Part shown: piece by piece, positions 23,243 through 30,167 of the stretch
Position numbering within the stretch: the first letter of the stretch is position 1
How the letters are laid out: the number at the start of each line of letters is the position of its first letter
Origin: a virus
IMG/VR virus record: IMGVR_UViG_3300010331_000021
Span: 1 to 42,868 of that record
DNA: 42,868 nucleotides
Direction: 5' to 3' (one strand)
Notes under the pieces: generated by a model
Databases searched by the model: none
The model's input: only the letters and a program-made list of their open reading frames with translations
Told to the model about the DNA's origin: nothing
Translations under genes and position numbers: made by a program

Positions 23243-24133
23243 TTAATTAACCCCTTTCGCTTTGGCCCAGTCTTCATAATTTATATATGCGATAATCTCA
23301 CCGCTTTGATTGTCTTTGCGTGCCGATGGGCTCCATCCCTCGTAGGGTACATTTATCCAGCAACAACGATCGAGAGGGTGCAATGGCATCTGTGGGCTAC
23401 CGCCATCGTTAATATCGTATAGCTTACCATCTTGCTCAGCGCATTCTGGAGAGGTTTTACCATCCAGTGTGGCACTCCACATATGCTGTTCAACACCCGA
23501 GCTTTTACCAATATCTATTGACGCCCGCGTCTGAACTCTTGATGTCTCTGTTGCGACTAATCTTCGACTCTCATACGCTGTCACATTGAAACGGTCCCGG
23601 ATCTCTCTGCCTATTTTGTCGATCGTCATTTTCCCTTGCATCGCCTTGGTGAGCGAGTCTTGCAAGTGGTCGATCATTCCGGCTTTGTTTGACCAGATCC
23701 TATCGCTGAAAAACTCACCTTTATACTTCGCATTGACGGCTGCTTGAATGAATTCCTTTTTGAGGAGGTTGAATTTAATATTGGCCTTCAAGCCCGACTC
23801 CATAACAAAAGCATTTTTGTAGTATGTCGAGCTGAAGACCGAAGATAGCAATAGTGTGACTTGATCGATCTCACTTTGACCTAGCTTTAGCCCCATAGCC
23901 TTCAATTTTGACTTCATTCCGGTCATAAGTTGTCGTTGTTGAGCTGTTGTTAATGTTATAACCCCGTCCTTAGCGTGGTTGATATATGCTTTACCGATCA
24001 AGTCGTGTAATTCACCCATCGCGGCCTTTTGTTCCAAGTACACTGGTTTCATAGCGTCTTCAGCGTACTTCTCACCGTCGACTTTCACCTGCTCGACTAA
24101 CTTCCGGTAGGCTGGGTCAATCTTCTTAGGCAT
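23243..24133 (-). CDS. Minor head protein (SPP1 gp7 / Mu F-like)
   Basis: 296 aa, overlapping the portal gene end. ATETSRVQTRAS and C-terminal Cys/His motifs fit this family. Confidence 0.8.
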   Translation of the reverse strand: MPKKIDPAYRKLVEQVKVDGEKYAEDAMKPVYLEQKAAMGELHDLIGKAYINHAKDGVITLTTAQQRQLMTGMKSKLKAMGLKLGQSEIDQVTLLLSSVFSSTYYKNAFVMESGLKANIKFNLLKKEFIQAAVNAKYKGEFFSDRIWSNKAGMIDHLQDSLTKAMQGKMTIDKIGREIRDRFNVTAYESRRLVATETSRVQTRASIDIGKSSGVEQHMWSATLDGKTSPECAEQDGKLYDINDGGSPQMPLHPLDRCCWINVPYEGWSPSARKDNQSGEIIAYINYEDWAKAKGVN

Positions 24134-25406
24134 TAGGCACCACCGGATTCAGTAAATCATTTCCTATGGAATTGGCTTTGTTTTCCTCTTTCAGCAATGC
24201 CATCTCCGCATCCACGTTAGCCACAAAGCTTAACTGCTTAATTCCTGTCTTGGTGGATACCTTGCCATTGAGTTGACTTATGATCTGCGCCATCATGAGA
24301 TCATCCGAGGGAATGTTCGGTGTGAGTTTAGATTCTACATCACCATAGAAATAATCTTTGTTTTTCTTGACCTTCAAATACTCAAACAAGAATTGATGCC
24401 GGAGTTTAATACAATCCTGTATGGCCTGAATATTGTTCGTGCATTTCTGCTGCAATCCGATCAGCCGGTTCTTCATGGCTAGGCTTGAAGTGTTACTGGA
24501 CAGCTTTTCATTGTGATTAATGTGGTTTGAAAGCTCATACATATTTTCTCTCAGCGTGCTCATGGCATTTTGGATGAAAGTATCCGATAATGTCTTGATC
24601 AAGAACTGAGCTGAAGCCTTCTCATTGGGTAGCATCATCACGCCAAGCTTCTTCATCTTTGTTAGATCTTCATCCTCGACCGTGCAATTCGTTAATACGA
24701 GGAAAGCGTTTCGCATGTCGGAGATCTCATTCACTAGGTCAGACGTGATCGTCTCATATCCGTCCTGAGCGCCTTTGATGTTGTTGAAGAGCGATTCGTA
24801 TATGGTCCCAATATGGCACACGCTAACAGGCACCCTGCTGAACTTGGTGGACTCTGGCTCTCCCAGCAACGCAAAGCTTTCACCATCGATGGTGTAATGG
24901 GTAACGGTATTTCCCTCATAAACATCTGCATATTGCGTTTCAAGGTCGAATTTCTTCATAAAAAACCGGATTACCAGTACAACATTCCCAATATCATCCC
25001 GCAATACGTAGGCATCCCTCGGTGTTAGGATAAGTGCCGAAAATAGAGCGTCATCGTTGAGGTAATACAGTTCATAAGCCTCGTTGAACTTAAGAGCTTC
25101 CTTACATAGCTCCCGGTCATGTTTCTCGCTCCAATGGACGGTATTTACTCTTATGTCCTCAATGATCGCCGGATTGTCAGAGTGGCTCGTATAGGTAATC
25201 TTGTTACCTACGCAATACGCCGCCTCTTCCGTGATGAATTTTTGTAGCATGTTATTACTAACCTTGCTATTTGCCCGTTCCGTCACCATTTCGTAATTTG
25301 TAAGGGCGTCGGTCTTACCGTCGTAATAATCTTGCATCTTTTCGTATCCGGGTAGGTTTAATAAAAATTCTTCCCGGCATTGTTGCAATAAAGTGAGTTC
25401 TGCCAC
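24126..25406 (-). CDS. Portal protein
   Basis: 426 aa, directly downstream of terL. The call rests on size and position. Confidence 0.85.
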   Translation of the reverse strand: MAELTLLQQCREEFLLNLPGYEKMQDYYDGKTDALTNYEMVTERANSKVSNNMLQKFITEEAAYCVGNKITYTSHSDNPAIIEDIRVNTVHWSEKHDRELCKEALKFNEAYELYYLNDDALFSALILTPRDAYVLRDDIGNVVLVIRFFMKKFDLETQYADVYEGNTVTHYTIDGESFALLGEPESTKFSRVPVSVCHIGTIYESLFNNIKGAQDGYETITSDLVNEISDMRNAFLVLTNCTVEDEDLTKMKKLGVMMLPNEKASAQFLIKTLSDTFIQNAMSTLRENMYELSNHINHNEKLSSNTSSLAMKNRLIGLQQKCTNNIQAIQDCIKLRHQFLFEYLKVKKNKDYFYGDVESKLTPNIPSDDLMMAQIISQLNGKVSTKTGIKQLSFVANVDAEMALLKEENKANSIGNDLLNPVVPNA

Positions 25407-25421
25407 GTAATCAGCTCCTTT

Positions 25422-27188
25422 CTAAACGCCTAATAGCCTTCTGTCCCCAACTTTTATGGCCTGAAGTACCTTTATTTCTTTAATGTCGATCGTAAATTGA
25501 GCCACACAGTCAGGCGCATCATCGTGTTCCGAGAAATCCTGTCCGGAGAACTCCAAGACTTGATCACAGAACGCCTTATCTTCCTCGTTGAAGATCACTT
25601 GGCCAGTATTAACGCCCTGGATGATCGTGCCGATCTTCTCGTCTTTGTTTTGGCGTTGCATGGCGTTGAGATATTCAACCTTTCGGTACTTCAGCTCCGG
25701 TTCTAGTAGTGCCAGCTCTTTGATCTTGCTAACATCAGCTCCGGAGTAAAGATTCTTCTCAACACTGACGTGGGTTATGTCCGGATACAACAACAACAAC
25801 CCAACAACCTTCTTGCAGAAGTCATCAAAGCATAGTTTTGCGAGGATTCCCTTTCGGACGTATTTAAAGCCGTTAACGGCCGTGGATCCAACCAGTAAAG
25901 CAGAGTAATCCGACTTGATGGTTACGCTTGAAGCCGGGTCGCATACCAGCATGGTCTTTGTGAACTCGTGATCCTCAATTTCCTCCGCCGTTTGGGTCCT
26001 CATGGACTTGAACCACTTCTCACCGATCTTACTGGCGTCGTTGAGCATCTCCTGGGCGAAGGCCGTGGGGTTATTGTAATAATCAATGGCTAGATCAAGG
26101 CAGTCATATTTATCCGGCCAGATCGTCGTGTACTGCATGTCCACTTGATGCTGATAATAAAACTCTTTGGCATCAGCAACAGGATCTTGCCGTTTGTCGT
26201 CAAAATATATTTCTTTGAACTGTTTCCATAGCGGTCCTTCGTTGAAGAACTCGCTGACATCAAAGTCAACGGCCCTTTTAAGAATGTGCTTATAATCTCG
26301 ATCCTTGAGTAATTGAGACATGAAGCAATTCTTGTGTAAGATCGTTCCAATCACGATAAACTTCGTGGCAGGCTTTATCTTTACGCCTTTACGGTATACC
26401 GCTTTATCCCCGGCGTAAGCACTATCCTCCGCCCAGGTGTCATATTTCTTTTTACGACTGGCCTCAGTGATGATGTCCGCCCTGGACTGATAGTCATCCG
26501 CAATAATGCAAGACGGCCTACTATCGCCATATTTCTTACCACGCATTGAGCTAGTAGAAGAGATGGCCTGAATCTTTGTTTTGTTTGTAAGTTCAAGCTC
26601 CAGCTTGTTGACCGTGAAGTCGTTAGGCCGGATCAGCTTCCCGAATGCCGCGATAATGTATTGGTTTTCCTCGAAAGCCTGCCGAGTTTGACTTATGAAA
26701 GCGACCGAATCGCCCTCTGTCCGCCCAGCAACTAGCGTGTATTTGCTTTTCTTGTAAGCATGGATCCACACCGACAAAGCAAAGTCGAGGACAGTAGTTT
26801 TTGCCACTCCACGAGGAAGGACTGCTTCCAGTTTGTCATGAAGGTCCTGGATAAACATCCGATCTAGTTCTTCCCAGATCTCTATATGGACCGGCGCGAG
26901 TTCTCGCGCTGTGTTGTCCGGCTTCGGCAGGAAGGTGTCTTGGAGGAAGTACCTGCAGAAAAATGGAATGCTCAGGGCACCGATGCTGTGCGCTAATCCC
27001 TCAAAGCCGAAGAGGTTACTAATATTTTTTAATATCAACGCCTCTGTTGAGGTCTCTGCTTCTTTGGGGCTCGCGCCACTCGCAATAAACTGGCCATAGA
27101 TCGCTCCATACAAAAGCTGTCTGTTTTGTTGCTCTTCCTCTTCCGTGGTTTCTAACCTTTGCTGAGGCGCTTGTGTTTTAGCCATCAA
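25422..27188 (-). CDS. terL: Terminase large subunit. The likely start is the ATG at 27185.
   Basis: Walker A-like LPRGVAKTT and Walker B-like CIIADDY, plus a C-terminal nuclease-like region. Confidence 0.9.
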   Translation of the reverse strand: MMAKTQAPQQRLETTEEEEQQNRQLLYGAIYGQFIASGASPKEAETSTEALILKNISNLFGFEGLAHSIGALSIPFFCRYFLQDTFLPKPDNTARELAPVHIEIWEELDRMFIQDLHDKLEAVLPRGVAKTTVLDFALSVWIHAYKKSKYTLVAGRTEGDSVAFISQTRQAFEENQYIIAAFGKLIRPNDFTVNKLELELTNKTKIQAISSTSSMRGKKYGDSRPSCIIADDYQSRADIITEASRKKKYDTWAEDSAYAGDKAVYRKGVKIKPATKFIVIGTILHKNCFMSQLLKDRDYKHILKRAVDFDVSEFFNEGPLWKQFKEIYFDDKRQDPVADAKEFYYQHQVDMQYTTIWPDKYDCLDLAIDYYNNPTAFAQEMLNDASKIGEKWFKSMRTQTAEEIEDHEFTKTMLVCDPASSVTIKSDYSALLVGSTAVNGFKYVRKGILAKLCFDDFCKKVVGLLLLYPDITHVSVEKNLYSGADVSKIKELALLEPELKYRKVEYLNAMQRQNKDEKIGTIIQGVNTGQVIFNEEDKAFCDQVLEFSGQDFSEHDDAPDCVAQFTIDIKEIKVLQAIKVGDRRLLGV

Positions 27189-27358
27189 TCACACCGAGGC
27201 GGACGGTAGAGGTTAGTCTTTGCGGGTGCCATAGTCGTCGGCCTACCAATCGCCGACCTGACGGGCCTTTCATCGGGATCCAGCTCGTCACAGTCATAAT
27301 ACTCATCGATCTCTTCTAACTCGTCTCGTATTTCCTCTTTTGTCATATCTGGCACCAT
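27185..27358 (-). CDS. 57-aa protein with a very acidic N-half and a basic/Pro-rich tail
   Basis: Own translation: MVPDMTKEEIRDELEEIDEYYDCDELDPDERPVRSAIGRPTTMAPAKTNLYRPPRCD. AAGGAGTGA lies 6 nt upstream. Its stop overlaps the terL ATG by 1 nt. Confidence 0.5.
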   Translation of the reverse strand: MVPDMTKEEIRDELEEIDEYYDCDELDPDERPVRSAIGRPTTMAPAKTNLYRPPRCD

Positions 27359-27394
27359 AAGCTTTCACTCCTTCATTTCAGGCATAACTTACTC

Positions 27395-27760
27395 CTAGTT
27401 ACCATAGTCAATCTTCTTTAATTGACCATTTATATATCCCCAGTTGCTTGGTTTGAAGTCGGATAAAAGGAATTCAACTAGCTCATCATCTTTGTATTTC
27501 TCTTCTAAAACTTCCATGGTATCTAGCCAATTAGTATCATTACCCAACACTTCGGCTCTCTCCATGATTAAAACGAAACCGAGTTTTCCGCAAAAACTAA
27601 CTCTTGCTAAATCAGGATGATTGCCGGACCAAAGCTTCTCTTGAAGGTTAGCTAGTAAACCATTTAAGAATAAATCATATTGTTTAAATGTCGGTATTTT
27701 TAGGACAAACTTTTTAAATACAAATACTATCCTAGTCGCCCCACGTTCAATCTGGAACAC
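27395..27760 (-). CDS. Minimal protein-kinase-like protein, 121 aa (function is inference)
   Basis: GTG start with AAGGAGTGA 9 nt upstream. Motif order is ERGATRIVF, VLKIP, LIMERAE, SDFKPSNWG (D-x-K-x-x-N), then KIDYG 17 residues later. Confidence 0.55.
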   Translation of the reverse strand: MFQIERGATRIVFVFKKFVLKIPTFKQYDLFLNGLLANLQEKLWSGNHPDLARVSFCGKLGFVLIMERAEVLGNDTNWLDTMEVLEEKYKDDELVEFLLSDFKPSNWGYINGQLKKIDYGN

Positions 27761-27776
27761 TGATAGGCTTCACTCC

Positions 27777-28319
27777 TTATTTCACTCTCACGCTCGACGC
27801 GGCATACTCGTCTTGAACCCATCGAGGAAGAACCTCGTCAAGCTGTTTTCTAAAGATCAGATATAAATTAAGTGATATCCGGTTAGAGCCGAAGAAGTAG
27901 ATCGGGTTAACATAATACTGAGTGATCTTCTCACCACCCAGCAAGACGGTTACCCTGGCAATCATACTCACCTTGATCATGCTCCGCACAAAGTCTCTGG
28001 CCTGATATGCTTTCAATCCAACAAGCACACCGATCTGCTCATCGGTATAAGCCTTCACCCCACCACTACCCCGATAACCTAGCATATTGGTATTGCTCCA
28101 CATATGCTTTGCCAGTGTCGCCATCTGCCCGCGTTCCTTCATGGTCATGCCCTCTGGAAAGTCTACATCCACAAATGACTTGGCGAAGTTCTTACGTGCC
28201 CAAAACAAATAACCCTTCTCGTCATGGAACGCGGCTGCTATATGCTGAACCTTCTCACTCGTCATCTCCCCAGTATCCGGATTAATAATCTGAGTAACTT
28301 TTATAAGACTGTTGCTCAT
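27777..28319 (-). CDS. Winged-helix-like DNA-binding protein (RepL / replisome-organizer-N-like pattern, or a second TerS-like protein)
   Basis: 180 aa. AYTDEQIGVLVGLKAYQARDFVRSMIKVSMIARV and QYYVNPIYFFGS resemble wHTH replication/packaging DNA-binding domains. This is motif-level inference only. Confidence 0.5.
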   Translation of the reverse strand: MSNSLIKVTQIINPDTGEMTSEKVQHIAAAFHDEKGYLFWARKNFAKSFVDVDFPEGMTMKERGQMATLAKHMWSNTNMLGYRGSGGVKAYTDEQIGVLVGLKAYQARDFVRSMIKVSMIARVTVLLGGEKITQYYVNPIYFFGSNRISLNLYLIFRKQLDEVLPRWVQDEYAASSVRVK

Positions 28320-28877
28320 GGAAACCGCGTTCCCTTCCAGTTGGTTTTTGTGCCCATTTAGACCCTCAAATCAGTCGAAAAACCAACGGCCAAATATGGC
28401 CTAAACCCTTGGTAGTAACAGAGCGTAGCGAATTGACCATGTAAAGATACATAAGTACTAACGTTACAAGTCTGCACGGTTTCCTGCCATGGGGCCTTTA
28501 AGAGGGGCAAAAGTTTTGAGGAGAATTAAAAGTTTTTCTGGAAATTGTAAAAATAATTGTTGAGGCGACCGCCACGCTCTCAGGAGAAATCAGAAAAAGA
28601 AGACCACCCCCTAATGCTTTTTAGCGATTGGGTCCCATAATAGGTACTATGACAAGTAAAGTACTAATTGGTGCAACCTCTATAAGCCTAGTGTCAGTAA
28701 GGTTACAGCCAATCAGCGTATATTATGCGTAAGTAGTAAGCTGTAATTATGCGCCAATGTCCACGACTAGTGTACGTTATTGTTTGTGATCGACAGACAA
28801 CTCACACTCGGGCAGTAGTCAGCCGCTGAAATCCTGATAGGTTAAGAATTCAGTAACCAGACAGGAGCCAAGCTGTA
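28320..28877. other. 558-nt non-coding region, the largest in the window, between terS and the wHTH gene
   Basis: TAA, TAG and TGA occur repeatedly in all three minus-strand frames (checked by hand). No ORF of 60 aa or more appears on either strand in the track. Confidence 0.7.
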
Positions 28878-29396
28878 TTAGATATCAATGACCTCTGGTT
28901 TGTTTAATTGCCTACACTGCTTAAAGGTTTTTTGTATCTCCTCTAGCATGGGTACCTTGACCTCAATCGTTTTCTCCACCTCGTGCTTGTCTCTCCACTC
29001 TAACTTCTTCCTGTTCTTCAACCAGAAGATCATTGATGTCGGATCAGCGAGCACCTCTTTAGTGACTCGCTTTGTCTCGACCATCTCATAACCAACGATC
29101 GTTACATGATCCCATTTGTCATAAATGGGCAATCTCTCACGGGTTATCTCGTCATATCTAAAACCCTGTGTTCGCTTGAACAGAGCGTTCTCAACCATTA
29201 TGTCGGCTTCTTCTTTTCCCCTTTTTAAGGCAGACCGGAAAGACGGATATCTTTTCTTATAATCCTTTAACGTTGTAGTACCTATTCCCAAATTATGGGC
29301 TATGTCTGCTTCTATCAGGCCATCTCTACACCAGGCCTCAACGAGCACTAATTTACTTTGTACTTGTGGCCATTTGCTTACTGCCATATGGGCCAC
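28878..29396 (-). CDS. terS: Terminase small subunit. The likely start is the ATG at 29387.
   Basis: An HTH (DIAHNLGIGTTTLKDYKKRYPSF) is followed by ALKRGKEEADIMVENALFKR...MIFWLKNRKKLEWRDK, a pattern typical of Firmicutes phage TerS. Confidence 0.75.
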   Translation of the reverse strand: MAHMAVSKWPQVQSKLVLVEAWCRDGLIEADIAHNLGIGTTTLKDYKKRYPSFRSALKRGKEEADIMVENALFKRTQGFRYDEITRERLPIYDKWDHVTIVGYEMVETKRVTKEVLADPTSMIFWLKNRKKLEWRDKHEVEKTIEVKVPMLEEIQKTFKQCRQLNKPEVIDI

Positions 29397-29645: not shown

Positions 29646-30167
29646 CTAAAATATTGCAGGTTGAACAGGCTTTTTGAAGATAATTCCGCTATCAGTCAAA
29701 TCCTCGACCATATGATATATTTTATCTTCTGCCCTTCTGACCAGTAGCTGGACCGTTCCCTTTTGGATTTTCATGATATTCGCTGCCACTCCGAACGAAT
29801 AACCACTGCCCCTGACAAATGAGTATGCTTCGCGTTCTTTGGCGCTCAGGACCTTTAAGACTATCCCTAAATCTTTGATTGCTTTTTGCGTCTGCTCGCT
29901 GATCTCTGGAGGATGGCTTTGTATTGCGACTGCCCTAACAAAAGCAACACTCTGCGGATCCATGGGAACTTCCCGTCGAAGAGAGCTCAATCTCGTTATT
30001 CCTCGATAGCTGTCCGGGTTTTTACCCATCTCCATAAATCTGATTGAGTATCCAAGACTGTCCGCACAACTAGCAAGCAAAGATCTGTCCTCTCTGCCGG
30101 TGGCCACTGTTCTTGCTTTATTAACACTCCGTAAAGCAACTCGGTATTCCCTGATTAACCTTTTCAC
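29646..30167 (-). CDS. Sigma-70 region-4-like late transcription regulator (Xpf/positive-control-factor-like)
   Basis: 173 aa. LSAKEREAYSFVRGSGYSFGVAANIMKIQKGTVQLLVRRAEDKI is a region-4-type HTH. It is the last gene before the packaging genes. Confidence 0.65.
   Translation of the reverse strand: MKRLIREYRVALRSVNKARTVATGREDRSLLASCADSLGYSIRFMEMGKNPDSYRGITRLSSLRREVPMDPQSVAFVRAVAIQSHPPEISEQTQKAIKDLGIVLKVLSAKEREAYSFVRGSGYSFGVAANIMKIQKGTVQLLVRRAEDKIYHMVEDLTDSGIIFKKPVQPAIF

Follow-up and report, generated by a model that had tools for sequence, protein, structure and literature searches.

The window analysed here is the whole 42,868-nucleotide stretch of IMG/VR virus record IMGVR_UViG_3300010331_000021 (positions 1 to 42,868), a complete 42.9-kb phage contig with nearly all of its genes on the minus strand. 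It was found to carry, on the minus strand at 27395..27760, a small gene with a GTG start and a TAG stop which encodes a protein of 121 amino acids (aa), referred to below as the mini-kinase. A first-pass annotation, made from the sequence alone, had recognized in this open reading frame (ORF) the ordered core motifs of a protein kinase; the ORF is real, and all of the peptides quoted in that annotation are present in kinase order and with kinase spacing. The start of the gene is fixed in three ways, namely by an in-frame TGA four codons upstream, by an AAGGAG Shine-Dalgarno sequence and by an ATG at the same position in a homologue of 80% identity. As read from the sequence, the AAGGAG ribosome-binding site occupies 27773..27778 (minus strand), 12 nt upstream of the GTG, where it overlaps the TAA stop codon of a 180-aa gene. 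The stop codon of the mini-kinase comes after N121, one residue past a DYG motif, and read-through or frameshifting into the next ORF is ruled out by three in-frame stops between the mini-kinase and the downstream gene. In the PHROGs database the protein falls into phrog_4301 ('unknown function') with an E-value of 6.2e-26, residues 2–120 being aligned on profile positions 40–167 of 225.

The protein belongs to a large family of small phage proteins. A search of 5.8 billion proteins returned 56 relatives, of which nearly all with full coverage were 115–135 aa in length. When a profile was searched against 1.84 billion cluster representatives (50% identity), 1447 matches were obtained at E ≤ 1e-3 and 817 at E ≤ 1e-10; the best 150 of the 1447, to which inspection was confined, are nearly all of 110–150 aa with an alignment that reaches the C-terminus. 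Conservation is given throughout as counts over an alignment of 145 diverse members. In 112 of these the chain stops 2–3 residues after the Asp that corresponds to the first residue of the kinase Asp-Phe-Gly (DFG) motif. Where members are longer their tails are unrelated and non-kinase (RP12, 209 aa; AH04, 163 aa; OBP, 273 aa; and others), and N-terminal extensions in the family consist of a helix-turn-helix domain or of unannotated sequence. Purifying selection was found to be strong, with a proportion of synonymous differences (pS) of 0.85–0.96, which is saturated, against a proportion of non-synonymous differences (pN) of 0.13–0.35 among homologues of 55–80% identity. From the size of the family, the shared end point, the unrelated tails and a pN far below pS it follows that the short length is a selected state.

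It had been proposed in the first-pass annotation that this gene could be a truncated, that is damaged, copy of a kinase, and that full-length homologues might reveal this. The longer relatives were considered as full-length ancestors and rejected, the tails of RP12, AH04 and OBP and the other extended members being devoid of kinase C-lobe motifs and of Pfam domains. A remnant created by a premature stop or a deletion, or an ORF that arose by chance, would agree with a protein that ends one residue after DYG. However, the same end is shared by the diverse relatives counted above, which were drawn from 1447 clusters, and is maintained under strong purifying selection, while the region downstream contains the three in-frame stops and an unrelated acidic ORF of 57 aa, and the structural model described below is a confident compact domain. 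The family data refute this explanation, and its probability is negligible.

One member of unusual composition was noted. P0159 (L051:5001-6173) is a protein of 390 aa, an in-frame fusion of the mini-kinase domain with minor capsid protein 2 (PF06152), of which the C-terminal two thirds are present. Its locus lies on a bacterial chromosome with toxin-antitoxin genes on the flanks, and the fusion is probably the product of a deletion in a decaying prophage. A scan of 185,579 representative genomes with close-subfamily patterns, which are narrow, returned no match.

The motifs of the 121-aa protein, all on the minus strand, correspond to Hanks subdomains I–VII and are collinear with those of PknB, PKA and TTK. 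The equivalent of the Gly-loop, of the form G-x-T-R, is ERGATRIVF (residues 5–13; 27722..27748), in which G7 is conserved in 144 of 145 members, position 9 is Thr or Ser in 139, R10 is invariant and V12 is kept in 139. It is followed by FVLKIP (residues 18–23; 27692..27709), which resembles the VAIK motif of strand beta3 and has the form A/V-x-K, with Ala or Val at position 19, an invariant K21 and P23 in 143 members. The alphaC helix, YDLFLNGLLANLQEKLW (27629..27679), contains the invariant residues N38 and E41, the latter lying within LLANLQEKLW (residues 35–44). Strand beta5 and the hinge are represented by LIMERAE (residues 64–70; 27551..27571), where M66 (138/145) is aligned with the gatekeeper Met of the PknB 'VMEY' hinge. 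A single long helix (residues 78–89; 27494..27529) is the equivalent of alphaE and sits in the stretch between hinge and catalytic loop (residues 69–98), which is the most variable and indel-rich region of the family. The catalytic loop is LSDFKPSNWG (27437..27466), of which SDFKPSNWG forms residues 100–108 with D101, K103 and N106, and G108, which takes the place of the adenine-floor Leu, is conserved in 143 members. The DFG equivalent, DYG (27401..27409), ends the peptide KIDYG (residues 116–120), with D118 invariant, Y119 in 141 members and G120 in 134. The D-x-K-x-x-N form of the loop, the 17 residues that separate D101 from D118 and the stop one residue after DYG were all verified on the sequence.

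Five residues (R10, K21, N38, E41 and D118) are identical in all 145 members, and three of them, K21, E41 and D118, are the counterparts of the kinase beta3 Lys, alphaC Glu and DFG Asp. A further ten (G7, V12, P23, F31, G34, G61, M66, G108, Y119 and G120) are conserved in at least 90% of members. The likeness to kinases is beyond chance, as the motif residues picked out in the first-pass annotation coincide with columns that are invariant in a family of over 1400 clusters. That annotation had named a lack of conservation at the catalytic positions of homologues as a refutation; the Lys, Glu and Asp were found to be invariant. Position 101 is acidic in every member (Glu in 84, Asp in 61), and position 103 is Lys in 125. 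At position 106, 74 members have Ser and 68 have Asn, and the residue there covaries nearly perfectly with that at 101 (D-N in 61, E-S in 74, E-N in 7 and D-S in none), as would be expected if both residues cooperate at the metal/phosphate site. Two variants of the catalytic loop can therefore be distinguished: D-x-K-x-x-N, the canonical form of Ser/Thr kinases, to which the window protein belongs, and E-x-K-x-x-S. For a protein of the kinase fold, a catalytic loop with Glu and Ser is unusual.

What is missing is equally well defined. Subdomains VIII–XI (the activation segment with its APE motif, the alphaF Asp and alphaG–alphaI) are absent, the chain ending 3 residues after D118; alphaD is absent, a linker at most taking its place, and no His-Arg precedes the catalytic Asp. 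The first-pass annotation had described the protein as having no C-lobe, which is correct for the activation segment and subdomains VIII–XI; the N-terminal part of the C-lobe is retained, in the form of the alphaE-like helix, the catalytic loop, beta7–beta8 and the DFG-like motif.

A structural model was built with AlphaFold2 from an alignment of 30 sequences and scored well (predicted local distance difference test, pLDDT, 92.4; predicted template modelling score, pTM, 0.81). Its secondary structure according to DSSP comprises strands at 3–6, 10–14, 18–23, 54–57, 64–67, 107–110 and 113–116 and helices at 28–44 and 78–89, giving the order beta1–3, alphaC (28–44), beta4–5, helix (78–89), short helix, catalytic loop and beta7–8. 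The comparison of a predicted structure with known folds, which had been suggested as a check, did reveal similarity to the protein-kinase-like fold. Foldseek returned 1889 matches in the PDB at E ≤ 10, and the best 50 of these are all of the kinase fold, with a best E-value of 1.7e-4, a probability of about 1.0 and a template modelling score on the query (TMq) of 0.43–0.60. They include TTK/Mps1, PknA and PknB of Mycobacterium tuberculosis, TTBK2 and the aminoglycoside-kinase-like Cph001. Among predicted viral structures (BFVD), the best match was the homologue of Ralstonia phage RP12 (E 2e-10, TMq 0.76), named 'Protein kinase domain-containing protein' in UniProt; it is followed by many phage proteins of 130–270 aa and then by full-length kinases of giant viruses and Bacillus phages. 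On the strength of the predicted structure, this is very probably a genuine kinase-fold family.

Sequence profiles gave the same register. Searched against all PDB sequences, the 145-member profile had TTK for each of its 22 best matches, at E-values of about 0.1, with HSDLKPANF..IDFG of TTK placed on veaKpdNfG..iDYG motif for motif. An hhalign comparison with PKA placed D101, K103, N106 and D118 on D166, K168, N171 and D184 (E 0.44). Against an alignment of PknB relatives, which are too alike to make a good profile, the match was full-length and collinear (E 0.15), pairing K21 with K40, E41 with E59, M66-E67 with the VMEY hinge, D101 with D138, N106 with N143 and D118 with D156. The RP12 homologue also matches the PD-T4-6 Ser/Thr-kinase models over the same segment (E 1.4e-4). 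When the 145 members were compared singly with Pfam only scattered noise was obtained (PIP49_C in 2 of them), and neither PF00069 nor PK_Tyr_Ser-Thr was among the 25 most frequent families listed; a single-sequence search of the PDB gave chance flavodoxin matches only, at E-values of about 1. That the family is homologous to the Hanks-type kinases is well supported by the predicted structure and by the agreement between registers, and not by curated sequence models.

The best structural matches (TTK/Mps1, PknB and PKA, of PF00069) are collinear with the mini-kinase over subdomains I–VII. However, these kinases are of about 260 aa, compared with about 120 aa for the mini-kinase, which is without the activation segment, APE, alphaF–alphaI and the His-Arg. 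Peculiar to the family are the invariant R10 and N38 and the E-x-K-x-x-S loop of half of its members, and the window protein lies below every Pfam threshold. RIO, Bud32/PRPK and Kdo kinases are small kinase-fold proteins with no classical activation loop, of 200–300 aa and with a helical C-lobe, and several of them are ATPases or switches. They did not appear among the top matches listed, whether by sequence or by structure, a result obtained without direct profile comparison.

Kinase folds that lack subdomains VIII–XI are known from OspG and NleH1-2, type III effectors of Shigella and of enteropathogenic and enterohaemorrhagic Escherichia coli, respectively; OspG is active, is activated by binding host E2~ubiquitin, autophosphorylates and phosphorylates CAND1 (PMC12756638). 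The mini-kinase resembles these effectors in this respect, but differs from OspG in several others. OspG (pCP301) is of 196 aa and continues for 39 residues after the Asp of its IDF motif, compared with 3 in the mini-kinase, and its catalytic loop, HYDLNTGN, has no Lys, whereas the mini-kinase has K103. OspG is a secreted bacterial effector and the mini-kinase a phage protein, and no relation was detected when the family alignment was compared with OspG by hhalign (probability 0.2, 12 columns, out of register). The T7 kinase (T7K, gp0.7) is, like the mini-kinase, a phage protein of the kinase fold with an accessory role. It disarms defences by promiscuous phosphorylation, and its kinase domain (residues 1–242), with DPV in place of DFG, is followed by a shut-off domain (PMC13645617). 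By this description it belongs to a different family. Judged by the 196 aa of OspG and by the sizes of RIO, Bud32 and KdkA, the mini-kinase is considerably shorter than even the smallest characterised kinases known to us, in line with the first-pass annotation, which had placed it far below RIO, Bud32 and Kdo kinases in size.

The reading favoured here, to which about an even chance is given, is that of a stand-alone minimal Mg-ATP phosphotransferase, probably active and with an accessory role. ATP binding, catalysis, the class of substrate and the role in the phage are what we infer, while the gene and its family, the conservation, the purifying selection, the predicted fold and the residue mapping have been shown. 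The invariant Lys-Glu-Asp triad, the covarying catalytic-loop pair with its ever-acidic position 101, the conserved V12 and Ala/Val at position 19, which would contact the adenine, and the strong purifying selection all argue for a site that binds nucleotide and metal and is selected for chemistry, and not for a decayed pseudokinase. The predicted architecture is that of a Hanks-type N-lobe joined to the first part of a C-lobe (alphaE-like helix, D-x-K-P-x-N loop, beta7–beta8 and DYG). ATP would be held between V12, Ala/Val 19 and the hinge after M66; K21 and E41 would place the alpha and beta phosphates, D118 and N106 would bind Mg2+, and D101 together with K103 would act on the gamma phosphate. 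The active site is predicted to be open, there being no activation segment, P+1 loop or alphaF–alphaI, and since all peptide-positioning elements are absent, specificity would have to come from elsewhere. Two options can be envisaged. The protein may be a phosphotransferase or ATPase of low specificity acting on exposed substrates, comparable to the motif-free T7 kinase, or a bound host or phage protein may complete and activate it, as E2~ubiquitin does for OspG. The most plausible role would be in host takeover or counter-defence, as for the unrelated T7 kinase.

Several points weigh against this reading. In canonical kinases the catalytic loop and the spines depend on alphaF for their anchorage, and the mini-kinase has no substitute for this helix. 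Half of the family has Glu/Ser in place of Asp/Asn, and 14% of members are without K103. Among the minimal atypical kinases, several (RIO, Bud32 and COQ8) work as ATPases and not as protein kinases. The window protein had no match among curated kinase models (Pfam at E ≤ 10, NCBIfam, PADLOC) and, because the profile matches to kinases are singly non-significant (E 0.1–0.4), homology rests mainly on predicted structure. The copy in the window is located in a late packaging operon, which is not the usual place of early anti-defence genes, and full-text literature searches found no experimental data on any member.

A rival explanation is a nucleotide-binding switch, an ATPase or a pseudokinase, which would bind and perhaps hydrolyse ATP and would not phosphorylate other proteins. 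Such a protein could bind or remodel a partner in the manner of RIO, Bud32 and COQ8, or could dock through its N-lobe on a host Hanks-type kinase and block or trigger it. All substrate-binding elements of protein kinases are indeed missing, and the triad for nucleotide and Mg is invariant while the catalytic loop is looser (Glu or Asp, Lys in 86%, Asn or Ser). However, position 101 remains acidic throughout and covaries with 106, and K103, which is typical of Ser/Thr protein kinases, is largely kept; pseudokinases usually lose such residues. The kinase-like COQ8 proteins are reported to be ATPases (PMC13418538). On balance a switch or pseudokinase is considered rather unlikely.

The protein-kinase fold is one of the best-studied folds in biology, and its C-lobe helices are regarded as a scaffold that neither the catalytic loop nor substrate binding can do without. 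The mini-kinase family, which is widespread and strongly conserved, keeps every residue that contacts nucleotide, metal or phosphate and yet ends at DFG, and so offers an experimental handle on the minimal catalytic unit. It is tentatively suggested, and with rather less confidence than the favoured phosphotransferase reading, that a chain of about 120 residues ending at DFG is a self-sufficient kinase, and the smallest phosphotransferase of the protein-kinase fold known. If this is true, phosphoryl transfer would need no more than the N-lobe with the catalytic and Mg loops, perhaps in a dimer or once docked on a host protein that takes the place of the absent C-lobe. Phages would then be passing on the mini-kinase by horizontal transfer, in two catalytic variants, as an enzyme of general use for modifying the host or countering its defences.

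Full-text literature searches found no paper on the mini-kinase family. The fold assignment is not wholly new, as scattered GenBank and UniProt records already name homologues as kinases; annotators' labels include 'STE family protein kinase catalytic domain containing protein' in pEa_SNUABM_5 and 'serine/threonine kinase' in AH04 and Kc263. What appears to be undescribed is the family as such: how small its members are and how far it has spread, the conserved end of the chain at DFG, and the existence of two covarying variants of the catalytic loop. A structure-based survey of kinase-like domains from 2026 drops fragments shorter than 150 aa, and it is by such length filters that the family can escape surveys of this kind. 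Among enzymes of the kinase fold, the mini-kinase may be the smallest so far. With T7 gp0.7 as the first, it would represent a second and much smaller class of kinase-like accessory proteins in phages, just as phage kinases are coming to be recognized as tools of broad counter-defence. Since homologues are present in tractable E. coli phages (BASEL phage Bas45, where the gene is bas45_0262, phi G17 and Skure), genetic work is feasible.

The distribution of the gene is sporadic. Copies of 61–78% identity were found in five unrelated lineages of coliphages (Tequatrovirus, Vequintavirinae, N4-like, Felix-O1-size and 50-kb coliphages); among T4-like phages the mini-kinase is confined to a handful, and most lack it. 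This pattern of sequence identity speaks for recent horizontal transfer between virulent phages that share one host, and with such a distribution the mini-kinase behaves as an accessory, horizontally exchanged gene (moron). In the window the average G+C content is 44.9%, and it falls to about 36% exactly over the mini-kinase ORF, compared with 45–52% in the flanks (27100-28300). As this trough coincides with the ORF, the mini-kinase is a compositionally foreign single-gene insert in the interval between the genes for the small (TerS) and large (TerL) terminase subunits.

Neighbouring genes were clustered over 51 loci, and TerL was the sole recurrent family. It lies within about 1.5 kb of the mini-kinase in the window and in loci L001-L004, L016 and L042, and in L011 and L012 the mini-kinase is found between TerL and the portal gene. 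As these TerL-adjacent copies are closely related and not independent, the association carries little weight. At other loci the gene resides among small hypothetical genes, as in the N4-like phage phi G17, the Seuratvirus Skure, the rV5-like A7_1 and jumbo phages, or, in Bas45, between ipI and a tRNA cluster. A split kinase, with the C-lobe supplied by a neighbouring gene, was also considered and rejected, there being no recurrent partner but TerL in the 51 loci and downstream genes that range from 46 to 335 aa.

An association with packaging, in which the protein acts with the terminase or portal and, for example, phosphorylates or regulates a packaging or head protein, is suggested by this recurrence of TerL and by the prophage remnant that fuses the domain to minor capsid protein 2. 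Against it stand the close relatedness of the TerL-adjacent copies, the position of the gene far from the packaging genes in T4-like, N4-like, Seuratvirus, rV5-like and jumbo phages, and the G+C trough that marks a foreign insert. The borders of packaging modules are, moreover, common sites for morons. A packaging role is accordingly held to be improbable.

Other neighbours are relevant to whether the substrate might be a small molecule. In Escherichia phage JS10 (L007:3977-5354) the homologue stops 1 nt short of rnlB (RNA ligase 2), which starts directly downstream of it, and in RP12 the gene adjoins that for dihydrofolate reductase. Together with the presence of the aminoglycoside-kinase-like Cph001 among the structural matches, these neighbours would fit a small-molecule or nucleotide kinase whose open site acts on a metabolite, an immune signalling nucleotide or a nucleic-acid end. 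However, no metabolic or RNA-repair neighbour recurs in about 40 loci, the best structure and sequence matches are protein kinases, and D-x-K-P-x-N is the form found in Ser/Thr protein kinases. The small-molecule kinases of this fold also hold their substrate by a helical subdomain, which is missing here, and such an activity is thought unlikely, although less so than a packaging role. The adjacency to rnlB was seen in Dhakavirus-type T4-like phages (JS10 and NC-G) and is not conserved elsewhere.

In the window, the mini-kinase begins 16 nt after the 180-aa gene and ends 36 nt before the 57-aa ORF. The former (27777-28319, minus strand) matches phrog_31110 ('unknown function') and had no match in Pfam, NCBIfam, PADLOC, the PDB or phage records; its homologues occur near the mini-kinase only in the close relatives L001 and L002. 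The latter (27185-27358, minus strand) encodes a very acidic product, has its own AGGAG site and lies between the mini-kinase and TerL, its TGA overlapping the likely ATG of TerL (ATGA); a search for family matches found none. TerL itself extends over 25422-27188 and the portal gene over 24126-25406. TerS is located at 28878-29396, and further genes of the window encode a sigma factor, helicases, a primase and a DNA polymerase.

The phage RNA polymerase sigma factor (29646-30167, minus strand; phrog_1190, E 5e-34) is encoded just upstream of the packaging operon that holds the mini-kinase, and given this adjacency the mini-kinase is probably transcribed with the late genes under the phage sigma factor. 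Between TerS and the 180-aa gene there is a stretch of 558 nt (28320-28877) without a credible ORF, in which the GC skew is reversed and one terminator-like hairpin is present (28388-28401, minus strand). It had no Rfam match and its folding was no better than that of shuffled sequences (z = -0.85). This stretch could hold a pac site or a promoter.

The TerL of the window shares 59% identity with a TerL of a Clostridium perfringens phage and 47% with one of a Clostridioides difficile phage, a resemblance from which the host is probably a Firmicute. In its closest TerL relative, Clostridium phage vB_CpeS-1181 (MW478292.1:938-3790), the match is divided into two pieces over 2.85 kb, whereas the window TerL is uninterrupted. 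Two features annotated as 'terminase large subunit' with a hypothetical protein between them are recorded there, which suggests that the TerL of vB_CpeS-1181 is interrupted by an intron or an intein or is HNH-split.

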